Shown here piece after piece: positions 3,227 to 51,084 of a stretch of DNA of 64,000 bases. The notes beneath the pieces are model-generated. The model ran no database searches. It was not told the origin of the DNA and saw nothing but the letters and a program-made list of their open reading frames with translations. The stretch is from assembly GCF_054482595.1 (NCBI RefSeq), contig NZ_CM137008.1; one strand, given 5' to 3'. The translations under genes and the position numbers were made by a program. How positions within the stretch are numbered: position 1 is the first letter of the stretch; every line of letters begins with the position of its first letter.

Positions 3227-3664
3227 TCATCGAAGGCATTGCGTCCTGATGTATTCCTGCAGGTAGTCAACCTGCGCGGTTATCCTGTCGATTCCACTTC
3301 GGAGACGGTAATAATTGAGTTCAGCATCTGCTGTAAGTCTTGGGCTTTCTCCATTGCCCATGCCGCTGGCTCCGGTCGTTGACTTTGCACAGGTGGCGGC
3401 GACTTGCAGGCGCTTACGACCAGCAGAAACATCAGCACGGAGACTTTCGATAGTCGCGTTAGCATCAGCAAGCTCCTTTGTGTATCTGGCGTCAAGTTCT
3501 GCTACATCACGTTGACGCTTCTGCATGTCAGCGATTGTGGATGTGGCTTTATCACGTTGCTCTTTGTAGGCGATGGCGTTATCACGGTAATGATTAACAG
3601 CCCATGACAGGCAGACGATGATGCAGATAACCAGAGCGGAGATAATCGCGGTTACTCTGCTCAT
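3227..3664 (-). CDS. Rz: Rz i-spanin
   Basis: 145 aa ORF with N-terminal TM segment, directly after endolysin; contains embedded Rz1 frame. Confidence 0.75.
3280..3465 (-). CDS. Rz1: Rz1 o-spanin lipoprotein (embedded in Rz, alternate frame)
   Basis: Embedded ORF with lipobox LVVSAC and proline-rich [14 protein letters not shown] like lambda Rz1; start set at internal Met. Confidence 0.6.
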
Positions 3665-4137
3665 ACCTCAATCTCTCTGACCGTTCCGCCTGCTTCTTTG
3701 AATTTTGCAATCAGGTTGTCAGCCTTATGCTCGAACTGACCATAACCAGCACCCGGCAACGAAGCCCAGATATTGCTGCAACGGTCGATTGCCTGACGGA
3801 TGTCACCGCGATCAATCATCGGTAAAGCGCCACGCTCTTTAATCTGTTGCAATGCCACAGCGTCCTGGCTTTTGGGAGAGAAGTCTTTCAGGCCAAGTTG
3901 CTTGCGGTAGGCATCCCACCAACGTGAAAGAAGCTGGTAACGTCCGGCGGCTGTTGATTTGAGCTTTGGGTTTAGCGTGACACGTTTGCGAGGGTGATCG
4001 GAGTAATCAGTGAATAGCTCTCCGCCAACAATGACGTCATAACCATGATTTCTGGTTTTCTGACGTCCGTTATCAGTTCCCTCCGACCACGCCAGCATAT
4101 CGAGGAACGCCTTACGTTGATTATTGATTTCCACCAT
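3661..4137 (-). CDS. R: Endolysin R (lambda-type lytic transglycosylase)
   Basis: 158 aa; near-identical to recalled lambda R ([35 protein letters not shown]...). Confidence 0.9.
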
Positions 4138-4444
4138 CTTCTACTCCGGCTTTTTTAGCAGCGAAGCGTTTGATAAGCGAACCTATCGAGTCAGTACCGA
4201 TGTAGCCGATAAACACGCTCGTTATATAAGCGAGATTGCTACTTAGTCCGGCGAAGTCGAGAAGGTCACGAATGAACCAGGCGATAATGGCGCACATCGT
4301 TGCGTCGATTACTGTTTTTGTAAACGCACCGCCATTATATCTGCCGCGAAGGTACGCCATTGCAAACGCAAGGATTGCCCCGATGCCTTGTTCCTTTGCC
4401 GCGAGAATGGCGGCTAACAGGTCATGTTTTTCTGGCATCTTCAT
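4121..4444 (-). CDS. S: Holin S (lambda-type)
   Basis: 107 aa; matches recalled lambda S ([62 protein letters not shown]...). Confidence 0.9.
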
Positions 4445-12083: not shown

Positions 12084-12362
12084 TCAGGCCTCGAAGAATT
12101 CGCCGTTCTTCGGGGCTTTTTCTTTTGTCAGCATTCTGGCTACTTTCTTAGCCAGTTCCGCCAACTCCTCGTCTTCAACACCCCATTCAAGAACAGCCAG
12201 AAGCATTCCCATTTTTGGGATGAAGCTGTCTTTCCATCGCGAAATTTGCGATTCATTAATCCCTAATGCATCAGCAACCTTTCGCTGACCACGTACAGCA
12301 ATTCGATTCAGGATGTTGCTTGTAATTGCATTCGCTTTCTTGCGAGTACTTGTAAGTTGCAT
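12084..12362 (-). CDS. cII: CII-like transcriptional activator
   Basis: From Met MQLTSTRKK; strong similarity to recalled lambda CII (GTEKTAEAVGVDKSQISRWKRDWIPKFSMLLAVLEWGV). Confidence 0.7.
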   Translation of the reverse strand: MQLTSTRKKANAITSNILNRIAVRGQRKVADALGINESQISRWKDSFIPKMGMLLAVLEWGVEDEELAELAKKVARMLTKEKAPKNGEFFEA

Positions 12363-12430
12363 ATGTAAGTATTTCCTTAACAAATAAGAAGTTATGCGCA
12401 TCAACTTATGCGCGTTGTATTCCCGCATTT

Positions 12431-12474
12431 CGGCGGGAATGAGGACCATGACTGTTAAAGAGCGGTGTTACTTA
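12431..12474 (-). promoter_or_regulatory. nutR-like site (boxA CGCTCTTTAAC plus boxB hairpin)
   Basis: Minus-strand boxA-like sequence and TCCCGC-N6-GCGGGA hairpin just downstream of cro; same hairpin recurs upstream of N. Confidence 0.45.
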
Positions 12475-12717
12475 TGCTGCCTGATTCGGTTTTGGAAACA
12501 GGTGTGGCAAATCGGGGCGAATTTCGTAAGCCTTGATCTGCCCTCCAGTGGCGTTAACGATGGCGGTAACTTTCTCTGGAGAGACCAACCCGCCTTTCAG
12601 CCATTTGTGTACTGCTGGCTGCGTTACACCACACTTGTCGGCAAGACGCTTTTGGCTACCGACAATTTTCAAGGCTCGTTGAATTACTAAATTCATGAGC
12701 ATACCTCTTGTGGTCAT
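12472..12717 (-). CDS. cro: Cro-like repressor (HTH)
   Basis: 81 aa HTH ORF divergent from cI across the operator region; true start probably an internal Met. Confidence 0.6.
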   Translation of the reverse strand: MTTRGMLMNLVIQRALKIVGSQKRLADKCGVTQPAVHKWLKGGLVSPEKVTAIVNATGGQIKAYEIRPDLPHLFPKPNQAA

Positions 12718-12732
12718 TACTTATAACCAAAG

Positions 12733-12795
12733 ATAACTCAAGTTATAAAAATTAGCAATAACCTTTGTTATTTTACTTTGGATAACCGTAGTTAT
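12733..12795. promoter_or_regulatory. OR operator region: three ATAAC-N4-GTTAT palindromes
   Basis: Sites at 12733-12746, 12758-12771, 12782-12795, centres ~24-25 bp apart, between cro and cI. Confidence 0.5.
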
Positions 12796-12807
12796 AGATT
12801 TGTGGGT

Positions 12808-13515
12808 ATGAAAACATTCGCAGAAAGACTAAATGCAGCCATGAGCTCAGCAGGGGTATCACAATCACAGCTTGCTGACATGGTTGGAATATCTCAGCCA
12901 GCCATACAGAAGATGTCGTCCGGTAAAACAAACGGATCTCGCAAGATGGTTGAATTAGCCAATGCTTTAAAAGTGCGTCCTGAATGGCTTAGTTCTGGTA
13001 TTGGTGAAATGAGGGATGGTGCACATGAAGAACCATCCAATGTCCGTGAGTCATCTTTAAAAGCTGTGGTATGGGAAGACATTAAAAGAAACGATGACGA
13101 GTTTGTTGCGTTGCCTCTTCTTAACGTTTCGCTTTCAGCTGGAAGCGGTAGCTGCGAGCTAGAGGAATCATCGGAGTTCTCTTTGGTTTTCAGAAAGCAC
13201 TATCTGAAAAAGATGGGAGTATCTGAAAGATCAGCCAAGCTAGTTAGGGTTGTAGGGCAAAGCATGGAACCAACGCTTCACGATGGCGATGTTGTTGGTG
13301 TTAACACGCAAGATACCACAATCAGAGATGGTAAAACCTACGCTATTTGCCAGTCTGATTTGTTACGAGTAAAAACATTAATCGCCACCCCTACATCGGT
13401 GATAATCAGATCAATAAATCGCGAAGAGTACCCGGATGAAGTAATGGATAGAGATGAATTTCATAAAACCGTAAGGATTATTGGCAGAGTATTCTGGTCG
13501 TCTCATAGTTGGTAA
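12808..13515 (+). CDS. cI: CI-like repressor (HTH plus S24/LexA-like autocleavage domain)
   Basis: N-terminal HTH, C-terminal GQSMEPT...DGD motif; start set at first ATG of the TTG-initiated ORF. Confidence 0.8.
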   Translation: MKTFAERLNAAMSSAGVSQSQLADMVGISQPAIQKMSSGKTNGSRKMVELANALKVRPEWLSSGIGEMRDGAHEEPSNVRESSLKAVVWEDIKRNDDEFVALPLLNVSLSAGSGSCELEESSEFSLVFRKHYLKKMGVSERSAKLVRVVGQSMEPTLHDGDVVGVNTQDTTIRDGKTYAICQSDLLRVKTLIATPTSVIIRSINREEYPDEVMDRDEFHKTVRIIGRVFWSSHSW

Positions 13516-13757
13516 CCGATAATCAGAAGAAGACTTACGGAAGTGCGGAGGGATAATGGAATTTCTGATAGTTTTTGTTGTTGTTTTGGTCATCATTCTT
13601 TTTGTTTTGCTAAGCATTAGCAAAAAGCTATCTCAAATGATTGAACATAGCTCTAATCGCGCAAAATAGACTGGCCCCCTGAATCTCCAGACAACCAATA
13701 TCACTTATTTAAGTGATAGTCTTAATACTAGTTTTTAGACTAGTCATTGGAGAGCAG

Positions 13758-14123
13758 ATGATTGATGTCTTAGGACCGGAGAAACGCAGACGGCGTACTA
13801 CACAGGAAAAGATCGCTATTGTTCAGCAGAGTTTTGAACCGGGAATGACAGTCTCCCTTGTTGCCCGGCAACACGGTGTGGCAGCCAGCCAGTTATTTCT
13901 CTGGCGCAAGCAATACCAGGAGGGAAGTCTTACTGCTGTGGCCGCAGGAGAACAGGTCGTTCCTGCCTCTGAACTTGCTGCCGCCATGAAGCAGATTAAA
14001 GAACTCCAGCGCCTGCTCGGCAAAAAAACGATGGAAAATGAACTCCTTAAAGAAGCCGTTGAATACGGGCGTGCAAAAAAGTGGATAGCGCACGCGCCCT
14101 TATTGCCCGGGGATGGGGAGTAA
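13758..14123 (+). CDS. insC: IS2 transposase OrfA (InsC)
   Basis: 121 aa [26 protein letters not shown]..., matches IS2 InsC. Confidence 0.9.
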
Positions 14124-14986
14124 GCTTAGTCAGCCGTTGTCTCCGGGTGTCGCGTGCGCAGTTGCACGTCATTCTCAGACGAACCGATGACTGGAAAGAT
14201 GGTCGCCGCAGCCGTCACTCAGATGATACGGATGTGCTTCTCCGTATACACCATGTTATCGGAGAGCTGCCCACATATGGTTATCGTCGGGTATGGGCGC
14301 TGCTTCGCAGACAGGCCGAACTTGATGGTATGCCTGCGATCAATGCCAAACGTATTTACCGGATCATGCGCCAGAATGCGCTGTTGCTTGAGCGAAAACC
14401 CGCTGTACCGCCATCGAAACGGGCACATACCGGCAGAGTGGCTGTGAAAGAAAGTAATCAGCGATGGTGCTCTGACGGGTTCGAGTTCCGCTGTGATAAC
14501 GGAGAAAAACTGCGAGTCACGTTCGCGCTGGACTGCTGTGACCGTGAGGCACTGCACTGGGCGGTCACTACGGGCGGCTTCAACAGTGAAACAGTACAGG
14601 ACGTCATGCTGGGAGCGGTGGAACGCCGTTTCGGCAACGAGCTTCCGGCGTCTCCAGTAGAGTGGCTGACGGATAATGGTTCATGCTACCGGGCTAATGA
14701 AACACGGCAGTTTGCCCGGATGTTGGGGCTTGAACCGAAGAACACGGCGGTGCGGAGTCCGGAGAGTAACGGCATAGCAGAGAGCTTCGTGAAAACGATA
14801 AAGCGTGACTACATCAGTGTCATGCCCAAACCAGACGGGTTAACGGCAGCAAAGAACCTTGCAGAGGCATTCGAGCATTATAACGAATGGCATCCGCATA
14901 GTGCACTGGGTTATCGCTCGCCACGGGAATATCTACGGCAGCAAGCCAGTAATGGGTTAAGTGATAACAGGTGTCTGGAAATATAG
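14081..14986 (+). CDS. insD: IS2 transposase OrfB (InsD)
   Basis: 301 aa ORF overlapping insC as in IS2. Confidence 0.9.
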
Positions 14987-15193
14987 GGGCAAATCCACAA
15001 AAGAAGAAGAGCATCTAATTGATATAAAAGAGATTCTATCTGATATAAAAATCACATTAGATGAAATAAAATACACAACAGATCTAATTGAACAGTATAA
15101 AATACCAACCCCAAACGAGAGAAAAGCAATAGATCAATATCGTATTGACTTAGAAATCGACGAAATGCTAAGCAAAAGAAAAGACTAAAAACA

Positions 15194-15220
15194 CCCGGCC
15201 TCAGCGCCGGGTTTTCTTTT
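15194..15220 (+). terminator. Rho-independent terminator after the rex-locus gene
   Basis: CCCGGC-loop-GCCGGG hairpin followed by TTTTCTTTT. Confidence 0.5.
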
Positions 15221-15385
15221 CCTGCCGTTCACCACCCAATCACCCATCATCATCATAGACAAGCATCAAGCCAAAGGTAACACCTTCACCCCGCACGCAA
15301 GCCCTCAAACACCAATCAATCAGCAACATTTACAAAAATAAAATACATTTGTTATCCATCACTTATAACTTATTTACCACAAAAT

Positions 15386-15424
15386 ATAAGTTAGGTTATT
15401 GACCACACCTATAACCTAAGTTAT
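15386..15424. promoter_or_regulatory. OL operator region: two ATAAC/G-N4-GTTAT sites flanking a putative pL -35 TTGACC
   Basis: Sites at 15386-15399 and 15411-15424, same half-sites as OR. Confidence 0.45.
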
Positions 15425-15472
15425 CTTTAAGCCATCAGCAGGACGCTGGTAGCCAAACGGAACAGATTGGCA

Positions 15473-15515
15473 GGCTCTTTAACATTGATGGGATTGTCCC
15501 GCCGAAATGCGGGAA
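15473..15515 (+). promoter_or_regulatory. nutL-like site (boxA GCTCTTTAACA plus boxB hairpin)
   Basis: boxA-like sequence at 15473-15484 and TCCCGC-N6-GCGGGA hairpin at 15497-15515 upstream of N. Confidence 0.45.
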
Positions 15516-15708
15516 CCAAAGAGTAGTTGGCTTTGGGATTGGATGAATGAGCAGGCTGATGCTCGACCAATGTATAAACAGCGCTCATGGCAAGCAGTAA
15601 CCAATCTGCGCCTCAAGACAGCGTCACTGGTAGTGCGGGCGCTCTAACCAGTAAGCCGGAATTCAGCACCGGCCATCCAATCACCAAAGTCAATCATCGG
15701 AGGTCAAC

Positions 15709-16008
15709 ATGACAGTAGTCATTACATATCTGGCTGACGATAACGCCAGAAATCGCCGCAGAGCACGCAGACAGACTCAACGTGAACAGGCAATGCAAGA
15801 GCAGCGACTGGCGCGAAAAATTGCGCTAAAGCTCTCTGGTTGCGTCAGAGCAGATAAAGCAGCATCACTCGGAAGCCTTCGCTGCAAGAAGGCAGAAGAA
15901 GTCGAGCGTAAACAGAACCGTATTTACTACCGCAAGCCACGCAGTGAAATGGGTGTGACTTGTGTTGGTCGCCAGAAAATGAAATTAGGCAGCAAACCAC
16001 TTATTTGA
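15709..16008 (+). CDS. N: Antiterminator N-like
   Basis: 99 aa; arginine-rich N-terminus NARNRRRARRQ; C-terminus matches recalled lambda N (R.YY.KP....G.TC.GRQK.K..S.PLI). Confidence 0.7.
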   Translation: MTVVITYLADDNARNRRRARRQTQREQAMQEQRLARKIALKLSGCVRADKAASLGSLRCKKAEEVERKQNRIYYRKPRSEMGVTCVGRQKMKLGSKPLI

Positions 16009-23292: not shown

Positions 23293-23318
23293 AAGCCGCC
23301 TGATGGCGGTTTTTTCTT
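23293..23318 (+). terminator. Rho-independent terminator upstream of xis
   Basis: GCCGCC-TGAT-GGCGGT hairpin followed by TTTTTT. Confidence 0.4.
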
Positions 23319-23342
23319 GCGTGTAATTGCGGAGACTTTGCG

Positions 23343-23561
23343 ATGTACTTGACACTTCAGGAGTGGAACGCACGCCAGCGACGCCCAAGAAGCCTTGAAA
23401 CAGTTCGTCGATGGGTACGCGAGTGCAGGATATTCCCTCCTCCGGTTAAGGATGGAAGAGAGTATCTGTTCCACGAATCAGCGGTAAAGGTTGACTTAAA
23501 TCGACCAGTAACAGGTAGCCTTTTGAAGAGGATCAGAAATGGGAAGAAGGCGAAGTCATGA
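23343..23561 (+). CDS. xis: Excisionase (lambda Xis)
   Basis: 72 aa MYLTLQEWNARQRRPRSLETVRRWVRE..., matches recalled lambda Xis. Confidence 0.9.
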   Translation: MYLTLQEWNARQRRPRSLETVRRWVRECRIFPPPVKDGREYLFHESAVKVDLNRPVTGSLLKRIRNGKKAKS

Positions 23562-24609
23562 GCGCCGGGATTTACCCCCTAACCTTTATATAAGAAACAA
23601 TGGATATTACTGCTACAGGGACCCAAGGACGGGTAAAGAGTTTGGATTAGGCAGAGACAGGCGAATCGCAATCACTGAAGCCATACAGGCCAACATTGAG
23701 TTATTTTCAGGACACAAACACAAGCCTCTGACAGCGAGAATCAACAGTGATAATTCCGTTACGTTACATTCATGGCTTGATCGCTACGAAAAAATCCTGG
23801 CCAGCAGAGGAATCAAGCAGAAGACACTCATAAATTACATGAGCAAAATTAAAGCAATACGGGGGGGGCTGCCTGATGCTCCACTTGAAGACATCACCAC
23901 AAAAGAAATTGCGGCAATGCTCAATGGATACATAGACGAGGGCAAGGCGGCGTCAGCCAAGTTAATCAGATCAACACTGAGCGATGCATTCCGAGAGGCA
24001 ATAGCTGAAGGCCATATAACAACAAACCCTGTCGCTGCCACTCGCGCAGCAAAATCAGAGGTAAGGAGATCAAGACTTACGGCTGACGAATACCTGAAAA
24101 TTTATCAAGCAGCAGAATCATCACCATGTTGGCTCAGACTTGCAATGGAACTGGCTGTTGTTACCGGGCAACGAGTTGGTGATTTATGCGAAATGAAGTG
24201 GTCTGATATCGTAGATGGATATCTTTATGTCGAGCAAAGCAAAACAGGCGTAAAAATTGCCATCCCAACAACATTGCATGTTGATGCTCTCGGGATATCA
24301 ATGAAGGAAACACTCGATAAATGCAAAGAGATTCTTGGCGGAGAAACCATAATTGCATCTACTCGTCGTGAACCGCTTTCATCCGGCACAGTATCAAGGT
24401 ATTTTATGCGCGCACGAAAAGCATCAGGTCTTTCCTTCGAAGGGGATCCGCCTACCTTTCACGAGTTGCGCAGTTTGTCTGCAAGACTCTATGAGAAGCA
24501 GATAAGCGATAAGTTTGCTCAACATCTTCTCGGGCATAAGTCGGACACCATGGCATCACAGTATCGTGATGACAGAGGCAGGGAGTGGGACAAAATTGAA
24601 ATCAAATAA
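23539..24609 (+). CDS. int: Tyrosine integrase (lambda Int)
   Basis: 356 aa; matches recalled lambda Int; overlaps xis as in lambda. Confidence 0.95.
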   Translation: MGRRRSHERRDLPPNLYIRNNGYYCYRDPRTGKEFGLGRDRRIAITEAIQANIELFSGHKHKPLTARINSDNSVTLHSWLDRYEKILASRGIKQKTLINYMSKIKAIRGGLPDAPLEDITTKEIAAMLNGYIDEGKAASAKLIRSTLSDAFREAIAEGHITTNPVAATRAAKSEVRRSRLTADEYLKIYQAAESSPCWLRLAMELAVVTGQRVGDLCEMKWSDIVDGYLYVEQSKTGVKIAIPTTLHVDALGISMKETLDKCKEILGGETIIASTRREPLSSGTVSRYFMRARKASGLSFEGDPPTFHELRSLSARLYEKQISDKFAQHLLGHKSDTMASQYRDDRGREWDKIEIK

Positions 24610-30120: not shown

Positions 30121-31173
30121 TCAGGGAAGATAAACTTCACCGGAAAATATTTTTCTGGTCGTCCGAATAACAGATGCGCGTAACGTCGTGGCATCCTGAC
30201 CTTCATTACTTAAATGAACGTCGAGCGCACCACTGGGGTGTTCAATATTGATATTGCCATATCCTACAGAAGGGATGATTTGTCGGGTGACGGTGCCTTC
30301 CAATGCACAACTACTGGAAATAGCAATAGCACCGGTTATCGCCAACGCGCGATGGCAAGAATGCGGCATAAAATAACGCACATTAATTGCCCCGCCTTTC
30401 TGCGCTGGAGAAATAAGCACAGGTTTAGGGATAACCATATTACTGACATCACCTAAGCCCATTGCTTTACCCGCTTGTAGACGGATAGATTCAATGCGGG
30501 CTAATAATGCTTTGTCGGCATCCAGTTCCGCCGGTAATTCATAGCCTGTTTTTCCCAGATATTCAGCCGGAATAATGACGACTGGCATCGCCATATCGAT
30601 ACAGGTCACCGGGACATCGTCAAAATAATCAATCTGATTATCAGTCGGGAAAACTTTTCCGGTTTTGGTTCCAGCGGCATTCAGGAAAGTGAGCGCAACC
30701 GGTGCGGCAGTACCCGGTACGCCGTCAATTCTGGCACTACCCTCGTACTCGACAACACCATTTGGCGTTTGCACATCAGCTTCGATGAACGTACCCGTAT
30801 TGACGTTGCGGATACGTACGCGGGTAACTGGCGAAGTCGCTGCAATCAAACCATTTTCAATGGCGAATGCCCCAACGCCAGACAGCATATTGCCGCAGTT
30901 AGGCGTGGTATCGACACGTTGCTCATGGACGATAACTTGAGCAAACAGATAATCAACATCAGCACGCGGATCGCTGGAACGGCTTATAATGGCGACTTTA
31001 CTGGTCAGTGGATTACCGCCGCCAATACCGTCAATTTCCAGATCGTTACCGGAACCCATAATTGCCATCAATATTTTATCGCGCTGCGTTTGATCTTCGG
31101 GTAAATGTTCCGCTAACAGGAACGCGCCCCTCGAGGTTCCACCTCGCATCATCACGCAGGGTATTTTTTTCAT
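30121..31173 (-). CDS. ybhH: PrpF-family isomerase YbhH
   Basis: 350 aa, PrpF/AcnD-accessory-like fold family. Confidence 0.8.
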   Translation of the reverse strand: MKKIPCVMMRGGTSRGAFLLAEHLPEDQTQRDKILMAIMGSGNDLEIDGIGGGNPLTSKVAIISRSSDPRADVDYLFAQVIVHEQRVDTTPNCGNMLSGVGAFAIENGLIAATSPVTRVRIRNVNTGTFIEADVQTPNGVVEYEGSARIDGVPGTAAPVALTFLNAAGTKTGKVFPTDNQIDYFDDVPVTCIDMAMPVVIIPAEYLGKTGYELPAELDADKALLARIESIRLQAGKAMGLGDVSNMVIPKPVLISPAQKGGAINVRYFMPHSCHRALAITGAIAISSSCALEGTVTRQIIPSVGYGNINIEHPSGALDVHLSNEGQDATTLRASVIRTTRKIFSGEVYLP

Positions 31174-50282: not shown

Positions 50283-50358
50283 TGGTGGGTCGTGCAGGAT
50301 TCGAACCTGCGACCAATTGATTAAAAGTCAACTGCTCTACCAACTGAGCTAACGACCC
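50283..50358 (-). tRNA. lysQ: tRNA-Lys (anticodon UUU)
   Basis: 76-nt exact reverse complement of recalled E. coli tRNA-Lys. Confidence 0.9.
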
Positions 50359-50391
50359 CTTGCGGGATTATGCTGCTTTAATCATTCAGGA

Positions 50392-50467
50392 TGGTGGGTC
50401 GTGCAGGATTCGAACCTGCGACCAATTGATTAAAAGTCAACTGCTCTACCAACTGAGCTAACGACCC
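50392..50467 (-). tRNA. lysZ: tRNA-Lys (anticodon UUU)
   Basis: 76-nt exact reverse complement of recalled E. coli tRNA-Lys. Confidence 0.9.
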
Positions 50468-50613
50468 ATACGGGTGTTACCTGAAAGATTTTTACTCGGG
50501 GCCAATCTTTAAGATTGGTGGGTCGTGCAGGATGACTCGCTTCGCTCGCCCTACGGGCCGTTGCTGGCGCAACGTTATCCTTCACGCTTAACATCTGAGT
50601 TTGATGTTAAAAT

Positions 50614-50689
50614 TGGTGGGTCGTGCAGGATTCGAACCTGCGACCAATTGATTAAAAGTCAACTGCTCTACCAACTGAGCTAACGACCC
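50614..50689 (-). tRNA. lysY: tRNA-Lys (anticodon UUU)
   Basis: 76-nt exact reverse complement of recalled E. coli tRNA-Lys. Confidence 0.9.
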
Positions 50690-50692
50690 GAG

Positions 50693-50768
50693 TGGTGGGT
50701 GATGACGGGATCGAACCGCCGACCCCCTCCTTGTAAGGGAGGTGCTCTCCCAGCTGAGCTAATCACCC
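50693..50768 (-). tRNA. valZ: tRNA-Val (anticodon UAC)
   Basis: 76-nt exact reverse complement of recalled E. coli tRNA-Val. Confidence 0.9.
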
Positions 50769-50819
50769 GATACTGCGCTGGATACTACAAACTACTTCCA
50801 CCGAACCCACCGTAATTAG

Positions 50820-50895
50820 TGGTGGGTCGTGCAGGATTCGAACCTGCGACCAATTGATTAAAAGTCAACTGCTCTACCAACTGAGCTAACGACCC
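50820..50895 (-). tRNA. lysW: tRNA-Lys (anticodon UUU)
   Basis: 76-nt exact reverse complement of recalled E. coli tRNA-Lys. Confidence 0.9.
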
Positions 50896-50897
50896 GG

Positions 50898-50973
50898 TGG
50901 TGGGTGATGACGGGATCGAACCGCCGACCCCCTCCTTGTAAGGGAGGTGCTCTCCCAGCTGAGCTAATCACCC
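50898..50973 (-). tRNA. valT: tRNA-Val (anticodon UAC)
   Basis: 76-nt exact reverse complement of recalled E. coli tRNA-Val. Confidence 0.9.
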
Positions 50974-51008
50974 GATACTTCGCTGGATACTACAACTAAC
51001 TAGGTTAG

Positions 51009-51084
51009 TGGTGGGTCGTGCAGGATTCGAACCTGCGACCAATTGATTAAAAGTCAACTGCTCTACCAACTGAGCTAACGACCC
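51009..51084 (-). tRNA. lysT: tRNA-Lys (anticodon UUU)
   Basis: 76-nt exact reverse complement of recalled E. coli tRNA-Lys. Confidence 0.9.

Follow-up and report, generated by a model that had tools for sequence, protein, structure and literature searches.

The operators of lambda are 17 bp long (TATCACCGC...), those of P22 18 bp and those of 434 14 bp, with the form ACAA-N6-TTGT; structures of the 434 repressor and Cro are available (2OR1, 1PER, 3CRO), and 434 is known for an indirect readout via the central bases of its operators. Aggarwal et al. are said to have found in 1988 that Gln28 of the 434 repressor reads adenine 1 of the operator. For phage 933W, PMC8065619, citing Tyler 2004, gives OR three operators and OL only two; each spans 15 bp, has half-sites of the form xGAAC(T) and is centred on an A-T pair, and the 933W repressor's N-terminal domain has been modelled on 434 (PMC3317979). 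The GenBank and RefSeq records of the relatives of the locus described here annotate genes only, and the record of HK639 (NC_016158) adds a putative pR and a putative pL, without operators.

In the window, by which we mean the whole 64,000-nucleotide (64-kb) stretch of DNA that was analysed, five 14-bp palindromes lie at two places of a prophage, and we consider it very likely from their sequence and setting that they serve a lambdoid CI/Cro switch as its operators OR1-OR2-OR3 and OL2-OL1. On this reading it is an ordinary lambdoid genetic switch of a common immunity type, the operators of which have apparently not been written down before: full-text searches with the operator strings and the motif, together with topic searches on HK639 and on the CI and operators of Stx1 phages, gave no published description, with earlier publication possible in older papers on HK639, 933W or VT1-Sakai. 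The features of the locus are the following.

12084..12362, minus strand: cII (Pfam Phage_CII, E=3.7e-42; start set after the RefSeq homologue in E7476)
12421..12463, minus strand: nutR, with boxA GCTCTTTAACA and boxB hairpin TCCCGCCGAAATGCGGGA, downstream of cro
12472..12696, minus strand: cro, 74 aa, HTH recognition helix GVTQPAVHKW (from the ORF list)
12730..12758, minus strand: predicted PR, -35 TTGCTA (12758-12753), 17-nt spacer, -10 TATCTT (12735-12730), read from the sequence
12733..12746, no strand: OR1, ATAACTCAAGTTAT, within the PR spacer and overlapping the PR -10
12758..12771, no strand: OR2, ATAACCTTTGTTAT, abutting the -35 of PR as well as that of the predicted PRM
12771..12798, plus strand: predicted PRM, weak -35 TTTTAC, -10 TATAGA (12793-12798), read from the sequence
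12782..12795, no strand: OR3, ATAACCGTAGTTAT, overlapping the predicted PRM -10
12808..13515, plus strand: cI repressor gene, 235 aa, HTH helix GISQPAIQKM and Peptidase_S24 autocleavage domain
13556..13666, plus strand: 5' portion of the 98-aa ORF that comes after cI, split by IS2 (by comparison with the uninterrupted E7476 prophage)
13667..14997, plus strand: IS2, 1331 bp, flanked on both sides by the 5-bp target duplication (CAAAA, 13662-13666 and 14998-15002)
15193..15212, plus strand: terminator-like hairpin closing the operon on the cI side, ahead of OL
15365..15378, no strand: decayed OL3, ATAACTTATTTACC, retaining the left half-site alone, 21 bp upstream of OL2
15386..15399, no strand: OL2, ATAAGTTAGGTTAT, one mismatch at position 5 (left half ATAAG), abutting the PL -35
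15399..15427, plus strand: PL, TTGACC-17-TATCTT, 9/12 in the promoter scan
15411..15424, no strand: OL1, ATAACCTAAGTTAT, within the PL spacer and overlapping the PL -10
15474..15514, plus strand: nutL, with boxA GCTCTTTAACA and the same boxB as nutR, downstream of PL
15709..16008, plus strand: N-like antiterminator ORF, 99 aa, arginine-rich N terminus (from the ORF list)

The initial annotation had proposed, as a check on its reading of these palindromes, a motif search for further copies and for their density elsewhere. ATAAC-N4-GTTAT (ATAACNNNNGTTAT) occurs exactly four times in the 64-kb window, at 12733-12746, 12758-12771, 12782-12795 and 15411-15424, compared with 0.01 copies expected from 100 shuffles, and the window holds no further exact copy outside OR and OL. 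Its account of three 14-bp palindromes with identical half-sites between cro and cI is borne out, the three sites being exact and their centres 25 and 24 bp apart, as is its naming of the flanking genes as cro, cI and an N-like ORF, which agrees with the ORF list and Pfam. The pair that it described at 15386..15424, with a spacing of 25 bp between centres, is correct as regards the exact site at 15411-15424, the TTGACC -35 between the two sites and N downstream; the half-sites of the site at 15386-15399, however, are not identical as it had claimed, because the left half reads ATAAG. When one mismatch was allowed, six matches were obtained in the 64-kb window against 1.39 expected, the gains being 15386-15399 and 30326-30339. 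The match at 30326-30339 (ATAGCACCGGTTAT) stands isolated in chromosomal DNA and is compatible with chance, given the 1.39 expected.

A third good OL operator was considered for the window and rejected, since only the decayed half-site at 15365-15378 and a site with two mismatches at 15342-15355 are present; HK639 carries a good OL3 (ATAACTTATGTGAT) where the window has the decayed one.

The placing of the operators relative to the promoters is the same on both sides. At PL, the only promoter-like match returned by the scan of 15150-15750, the -35 TTGACC (15399-15404) begins on the last base of OL2, a T common to both, and OL1 fills the spacer and runs 3 nt into the -10. The predicted PR is identical to PL in geometry, with OR1 and OR2 placed as OL1 and OL2 are. 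Nothing was returned by the promoter scanner at OR because PR scores 8/12, compared with a threshold of 9/12; the positions of its -35 and -10 are conserved in 53 unique OR regions among the matches listed. The -35 of the predicted PRM is a very poor match that the scanner did not call, and at the place of its -10 the family consensus is TATATT. OR3 overlaps the TATAGA hexamer predicted as this -10, which lies 9 nt before the cI ATG, and a PRM start site about 3 nt before the ATG would give a near-leaderless cI mRNA. The locus has three symmetric operators in tandem over divergent PR and PRM (hexamers read by eye), a second set of operators at PL, with nutL and N downstream of it, and divergent cI (HTH and S24) and cro genes around an intergenic region of the lambdoid size of about 100 bp (here 111 bp, 12697-12807).

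The genes around the operators are those of a lambdoid immunity region. CI matches the Pfam families HTH_3 and Peptidase_S24 (E=2.4e-17), and Cro matches YdaS_toxin (E=1e-17) and also P22_Cro, with Xfaso1 Cro (3bd1) as its nearest solved structure and a start that agrees with a 225-nt RefSeq homologue. Its place after PL and nutL supports the reading of the ORF at 15709-16008 as an N-like antiterminator, its Pfam match to N_peptide (E=0.0014) falling below the cut-off. A nut pattern search gave exactly two copies in the window, nutR and nutL, with an identical 18-nt boxB in both. Exact TTGC-N6-TTGC matches were found on the plus strand at 12316-12329, inside the 5' end of cII and pointing toward cI (a candidate PRE), and at 23317-23330, about 210 bp upstream of the ORF 23539-24609 (a candidate CII-activated PI); there is no overall enrichment of this motif in the window, and only the positions of the exact matches are suggestive. 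The ORF 23539-24609 has the size of an integrase (356 aa) and would place the end of the prophage near 24.7 kb, with chromosomal genes following; a tRNA cluster at about 50.3-51.1 kb (50283-51084) consists of five tRNA-Lys(UUU) and two tRNA-Val(UAC).

The IS2 element sits 151 bp after cI, between cI and OL, without belonging to the switch or touching any of its elements. With it, OR and OL are about 2.6 kb apart, double the distance of about 1.3 kb that they would have without it. The 98-aa ORF that it splits is hydrophobic and is intact in E7476; just after this disrupted ORF, the hairpin at 15193-15212 is bidirectional, with a stem of 7 bp of which 6 are G-C.

The DNA-binding domain of the window CI is nearest to that of the 434 repressor (35% identity, ungapped, residues 6-67, E=2.8e-7). 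Gln28 of 434 aligns with a conserved Gln in the window CI, and operator position 1 is A in both; by analogy, we infer that the replacement of 434 Gln29 by Pro is paired with the change of operator position 2 from C to T, and that of Gln33 by Lys with the fixed C at operator position 5. Across the family, CI and Cro both carry a [ST]QPA[IV]xK recognition helix, which fits a switch in which the two proteins would read the same half-site. In relatives with other helices the half-sites are different: Klebsiella phage Mulock combines helix AQSSVNK with ATCGC-N4-GCGAT, Lambda_4C10 combines AQPTIWR with ATACG-N4-CGTAT, and BTP1 has the helix of Lambda_4C10 (AQPTIWR) with related sites of ATAGC type. 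The CI N-terminal domains of these three are 53-59% identical and the 5-N4-5 frame is kept with the other half-sites, so that such sets of helices and sites could serve as a recognition-code data set.

We assessed how far the array and the CI domain go together in a DNA-pattern scan of viral contigs, requiring two sites 10-11 bp apart, which gave at least 120 loci. Many of the loci compared here are close relatives, so that fewer independent events stand behind the counts than the figures suggest. Among the matches listed, a homologue of the CI N-terminal domain lies directly beside the array in 114 of 120, the canonical 25/24 spacing is present in 96 of 120, and almost all have the SQPA helix, its start SQP being present in nearly all even at about 36% identity of the N-terminal domain. 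This first retrieval was ascertained on the operator motif itself, a bias that is offset by a protein-based retrieval and by OL, which was not part of the DNA search pattern. With a narrow alignment of the CI N-terminal domain as query, which returned close relatives only, all 80 of 80 loci (30 unique upstream regions) have the three-site array at 25/24. At OL, 69 unique regions among the matches listed show the O2-O1 pair, mostly 25 bp apart, with the -35 immediately after OL2 and a -10, TATCTT in most, that overlaps OL1. In its promoter-distal half, OL2 has A, G or T instead of C at position 5 in most of these 69 regions (among the matches listed). The weakening of O2 that this suggests looks conserved and would be in line with cooperative filling.

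The half-sites are invariant in the 53 unique canonical OR regions among the matches listed, whereas the centres and spacers vary, and the mean number of G+C among the four central bases is 1.25 at OR1, 1.0 at OR2 and 2.5 at OR3 (in the window, 12787-12790) in this same set. Across the five operators, window and PA28 differ at 2 of 50 half-site positions compared with 11 of 20 central positions (Fisher p=4e-6), and window and HK639 at 1 of 50 compared with 7 of 20 (p=4e-4). Of the at least 120 pattern loci, among the matches listed, 62 have a CI of the window's C-terminal type together with Cro, and 32 have one of the HK639 type together with Cro. The occurrence of one DNA-binding domain (85% identity) with either of two S24 C-terminal domains that have strongly diverged is, as judged from these sequences, domain shuffling within a single operator specificity.

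Close matches to the cI-cro region are found in Stx phages and in a prophage. Identity is 99.5% with the Stx1a-converting phage Stx1a_10051, 99.6% with a prophage of E. coli O26:H11 11368, 94% with phage SH2026Stx1 and 78% both with PA28, an Stx phage, and with a group of Stx1a phages from O157:H7. In all of these the operators are kept at the same positions; central bases differ in the Stx1-phage, PA28 and 11368 relatives, and OR2 of PA28 has a mismatch. The IS2 insertion of the window is absent from these Stx1 phages, from PA28 and from the 11368 prophage. HK639 has an identical recognition helix, GISQPAIQKM, in a CI, encoded at locus 3501-4190, whose N-terminal domain is 85% identical to that of the window and whose S24 C-terminal domain is strongly diverged. 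Its OR reads ATAACCCAAGTTAT / ATAACCTTTGTTAT / ATAACCTCGGTTAT, with half-sites as in the window and 25/24 spacing, and its OL has three sites, with the 25-bp spacing and PL layout of the window; antitermination in HK639 is by put-RNA, in contrast to the N/nut system here. The PL of the window is the equivalent of the 'putative pL' in the HK639 record. The 'putative pR' of that record (TTGGGT-17-AGTAAT; locus 3407-3435) puts its -35 inside OR1; a better PR candidate (TGGACA-17-TATCTT; locus 3427-3465) mirrors the geometry of pL and is conserved across the family.

The initial annotation had taken these operators to imply a distinct immunity group. They do differ from those of lambda, 434, P22, 933W and H-19B, but the group is not unique to this prophage, as HK639, Stx1 phages and PA28 share both helix and operators. 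Since, in addition, the immunity region has matches in 570 of 5,426 complete E. coli genomes, the type must be regarded as common; operator set, helix and spacing are also found in more than 100 viral contigs. The window has the helix SQPAIQKM, ATAAC-N4-GTTAT and the OR spacing of 25/24, a combination that we call, for convenience, the HK639/Stx1-phage type, and biological homoimmunity with HK639 or Stx1 phages would be expected from the identical helix and half-sites.

Could the repeats be a product of chance, or a by-product of A+T-rich promoter DNA, with no operator role? The region is A+T-rich and the motif short, but the four copies stand against 0.01 in the shuffles, they fall at OR and OL only, and the invariance of the half-sites next to variable centres and spacers in the 53 unique OR regions (among the matches listed) effectively refutes this explanation, to which we assign a negligible probability. 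Another possibility is that the palindromes are bound by one regulator only, such as Cro, or by some other prophage or host protein, and that CI reads another sequence. Cro does belong to a fold family (YdaS / lambda-Cro-like) different from the 434-like domain of CI; yet both proteins carry the [ST]QPA[IV]xK helix, there is no other repeated or symmetric element in the 111-bp cro-cI intergenic region (12697-12807) and the array follows the CI N-terminal domain even when the C-terminal domain has been swapped, as in HK639. Moreover, a changed CI helix is accompanied by changed half-sites in the relatives, and we therefore consider a single regulator, or a foreign one, very improbable.

A more serious alternative, which we regard as unlikely but would keep in mind, accepts the operators as real and places them in the relic switch of a defective prophage, in which they control no viable phage. 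IS2 between cI and OL destroys the next ORF, and its junction occurs in none of the 5,426 complete E. coli genomes. The window contains the prophage only in part, the structural genes lying outside it. Against this, the genes cI, cro, cII and N are intact, as are the five operators, the two promoters and the two nut sites; IS2 interrupts none of these elements, which agree at 99.5-99.9% identity with their counterparts in an isolated Stx1a phage and in IS-free prophages.

Taking the five palindromes as the operators of the CI/Cro switch, we infer CI and Cro binding, an order of occupancy, PRM activation and cross-immunity, as follows. A CI dimer, with a 434-type HTH and the helix SQPAIQK, would read two ATAAC half-sites 4 bp apart, and immunity specificity would then rest on the pairing of ATAAC with SQPAIQK that is shared with HK639 and the Stx1 phages. 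O1 extends from inside the -35/-10 spacer over 3 nt at the start of the -10, and O2 shares 1 nt with the -35, so that CI at O1 and O2 would block RNA polymerase at PR (cro, cII and the replication genes) and at PL (N). CI at OR2, abutting the weak -35 of PRM, probably activates cI transcription, and OR3, covering the predicted PRM -10, would provide negative autoregulation. Cro, with the helix TQPAVHK, is expected at the same sites with the order of preference reversed. The four central bases are probably uncontacted and probably tune affinity, as in 434. Induction would proceed by RecA-stimulated S24 autocleavage of CI, after which Cro would take over.

A broader proposal, which we make tentatively and with somewhat more doubt than confidence, is that ATAAC-N4-GTTAT and SQPAIQK define one large cross-reacting immunity super-group, comprising the O26 and O157 Stx1 phages, HK639 and their relatives, with the immunity region matched in about one in ten complete E. 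coli genomes; within it, the central bases would set the filling order. If this were true, CI proteins with different C-terminal domains would bind each other's operators, the repressor of a non-Stx prophage could silence or exclude a Stx1 prophage, and the reverse, and a filling order set by A+T-rich OR1 and OR2 and G+C-rich OR3 would amount to 434-style indirect readout occurring naturally throughout a family.

We believe that knowledge of these operators makes homoimmune prophages predictable, including the Stx1-converting phages of O26 and O157, and will allow PR, PRM and PL to be annotated in hundreds of E. coli genomes in which the genes are now labelled, for example, 'XRE family transcriptional regulator'. 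It also provides a basis for reporter or footprinting tests of the stability of Stx1 prophages. Furthermore, the family is a large collection of natural sequences from which rules of helix-to-base recognition could be drawn and in which indirect readout by 434-type repressors could be studied. The view of how a lambdoid switch works is unchanged by these operators.

The comparison with characterised lambdoid operator sets that the initial annotation had suggested shows, with the operators of lambda, P22 and 434 taken from established knowledge, that ATAAC-N4-GTTAT matches none of lambda, 434, P22 and 933W, as it had supposed for the first three. H-19B, an O26 Stx1 phage, was suspected because the region of the window matches the O26:H11 prophage; its immunity was rejected, as the best local match of CI has E=0.12 (not significant) and the intergenic sequence is different. 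The immunity of 933W was likewise rejected, its operators being 15-bp sites with GAAC (PMC3317979) and the cI-cro DNA having no match to 933W by megablast. The window resembles 933W in having three OR sites and two good OL sites, going by PMC8065619.

With lambda, the locus has in common divergent cI and cro genes, O1 and O2 over PR and PL, OR3 over PRM, spacings of about 24 bp and the presence of CII, N and nut; the cI message from the lambda PRM is leaderless and the one predicted here near-leaderless. The differences are the 17-bp operators of lambda and, from established knowledge, a repressor with another member of the HTH domain family.

The switch bears a close mechanistic likeness to that of 434, with clear differences in specificity. 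The half-site is ATAAC here compared with ACAA(G/T) in 434, with T at position 2 and a fixed C at position 5, and the helix is QPAIQK compared with QQSIEQ, so that the half-site ACAA and the helix TQQSIEQ by which imm434 is recognised (the 434 operator being taken from established knowledge) are replaced in the window by ATAAC and SQPAIQK. In addition, Cro is of the lambda-Cro/YdaS type instead of the all-helical domain of 434 Cro, and OL has two good sites instead of three. Homoimmunity with 434 is not expected. The window nevertheless shares with imm434 a repressor N-terminal domain homologous to that of 434 and a 14-bp operator with two-fold symmetry, present three times at OR. The first Gln of the recognition helix is kept, with A at operator position 1 and AA at positions 3-4 in both systems, and the variable central bases look tuned, with a G+C-rich centre in OR3, which parallels the indirect readout of 434. 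As judged by sequence and layout, the immunity system of the window is a close mechanistic cousin of that of 434.
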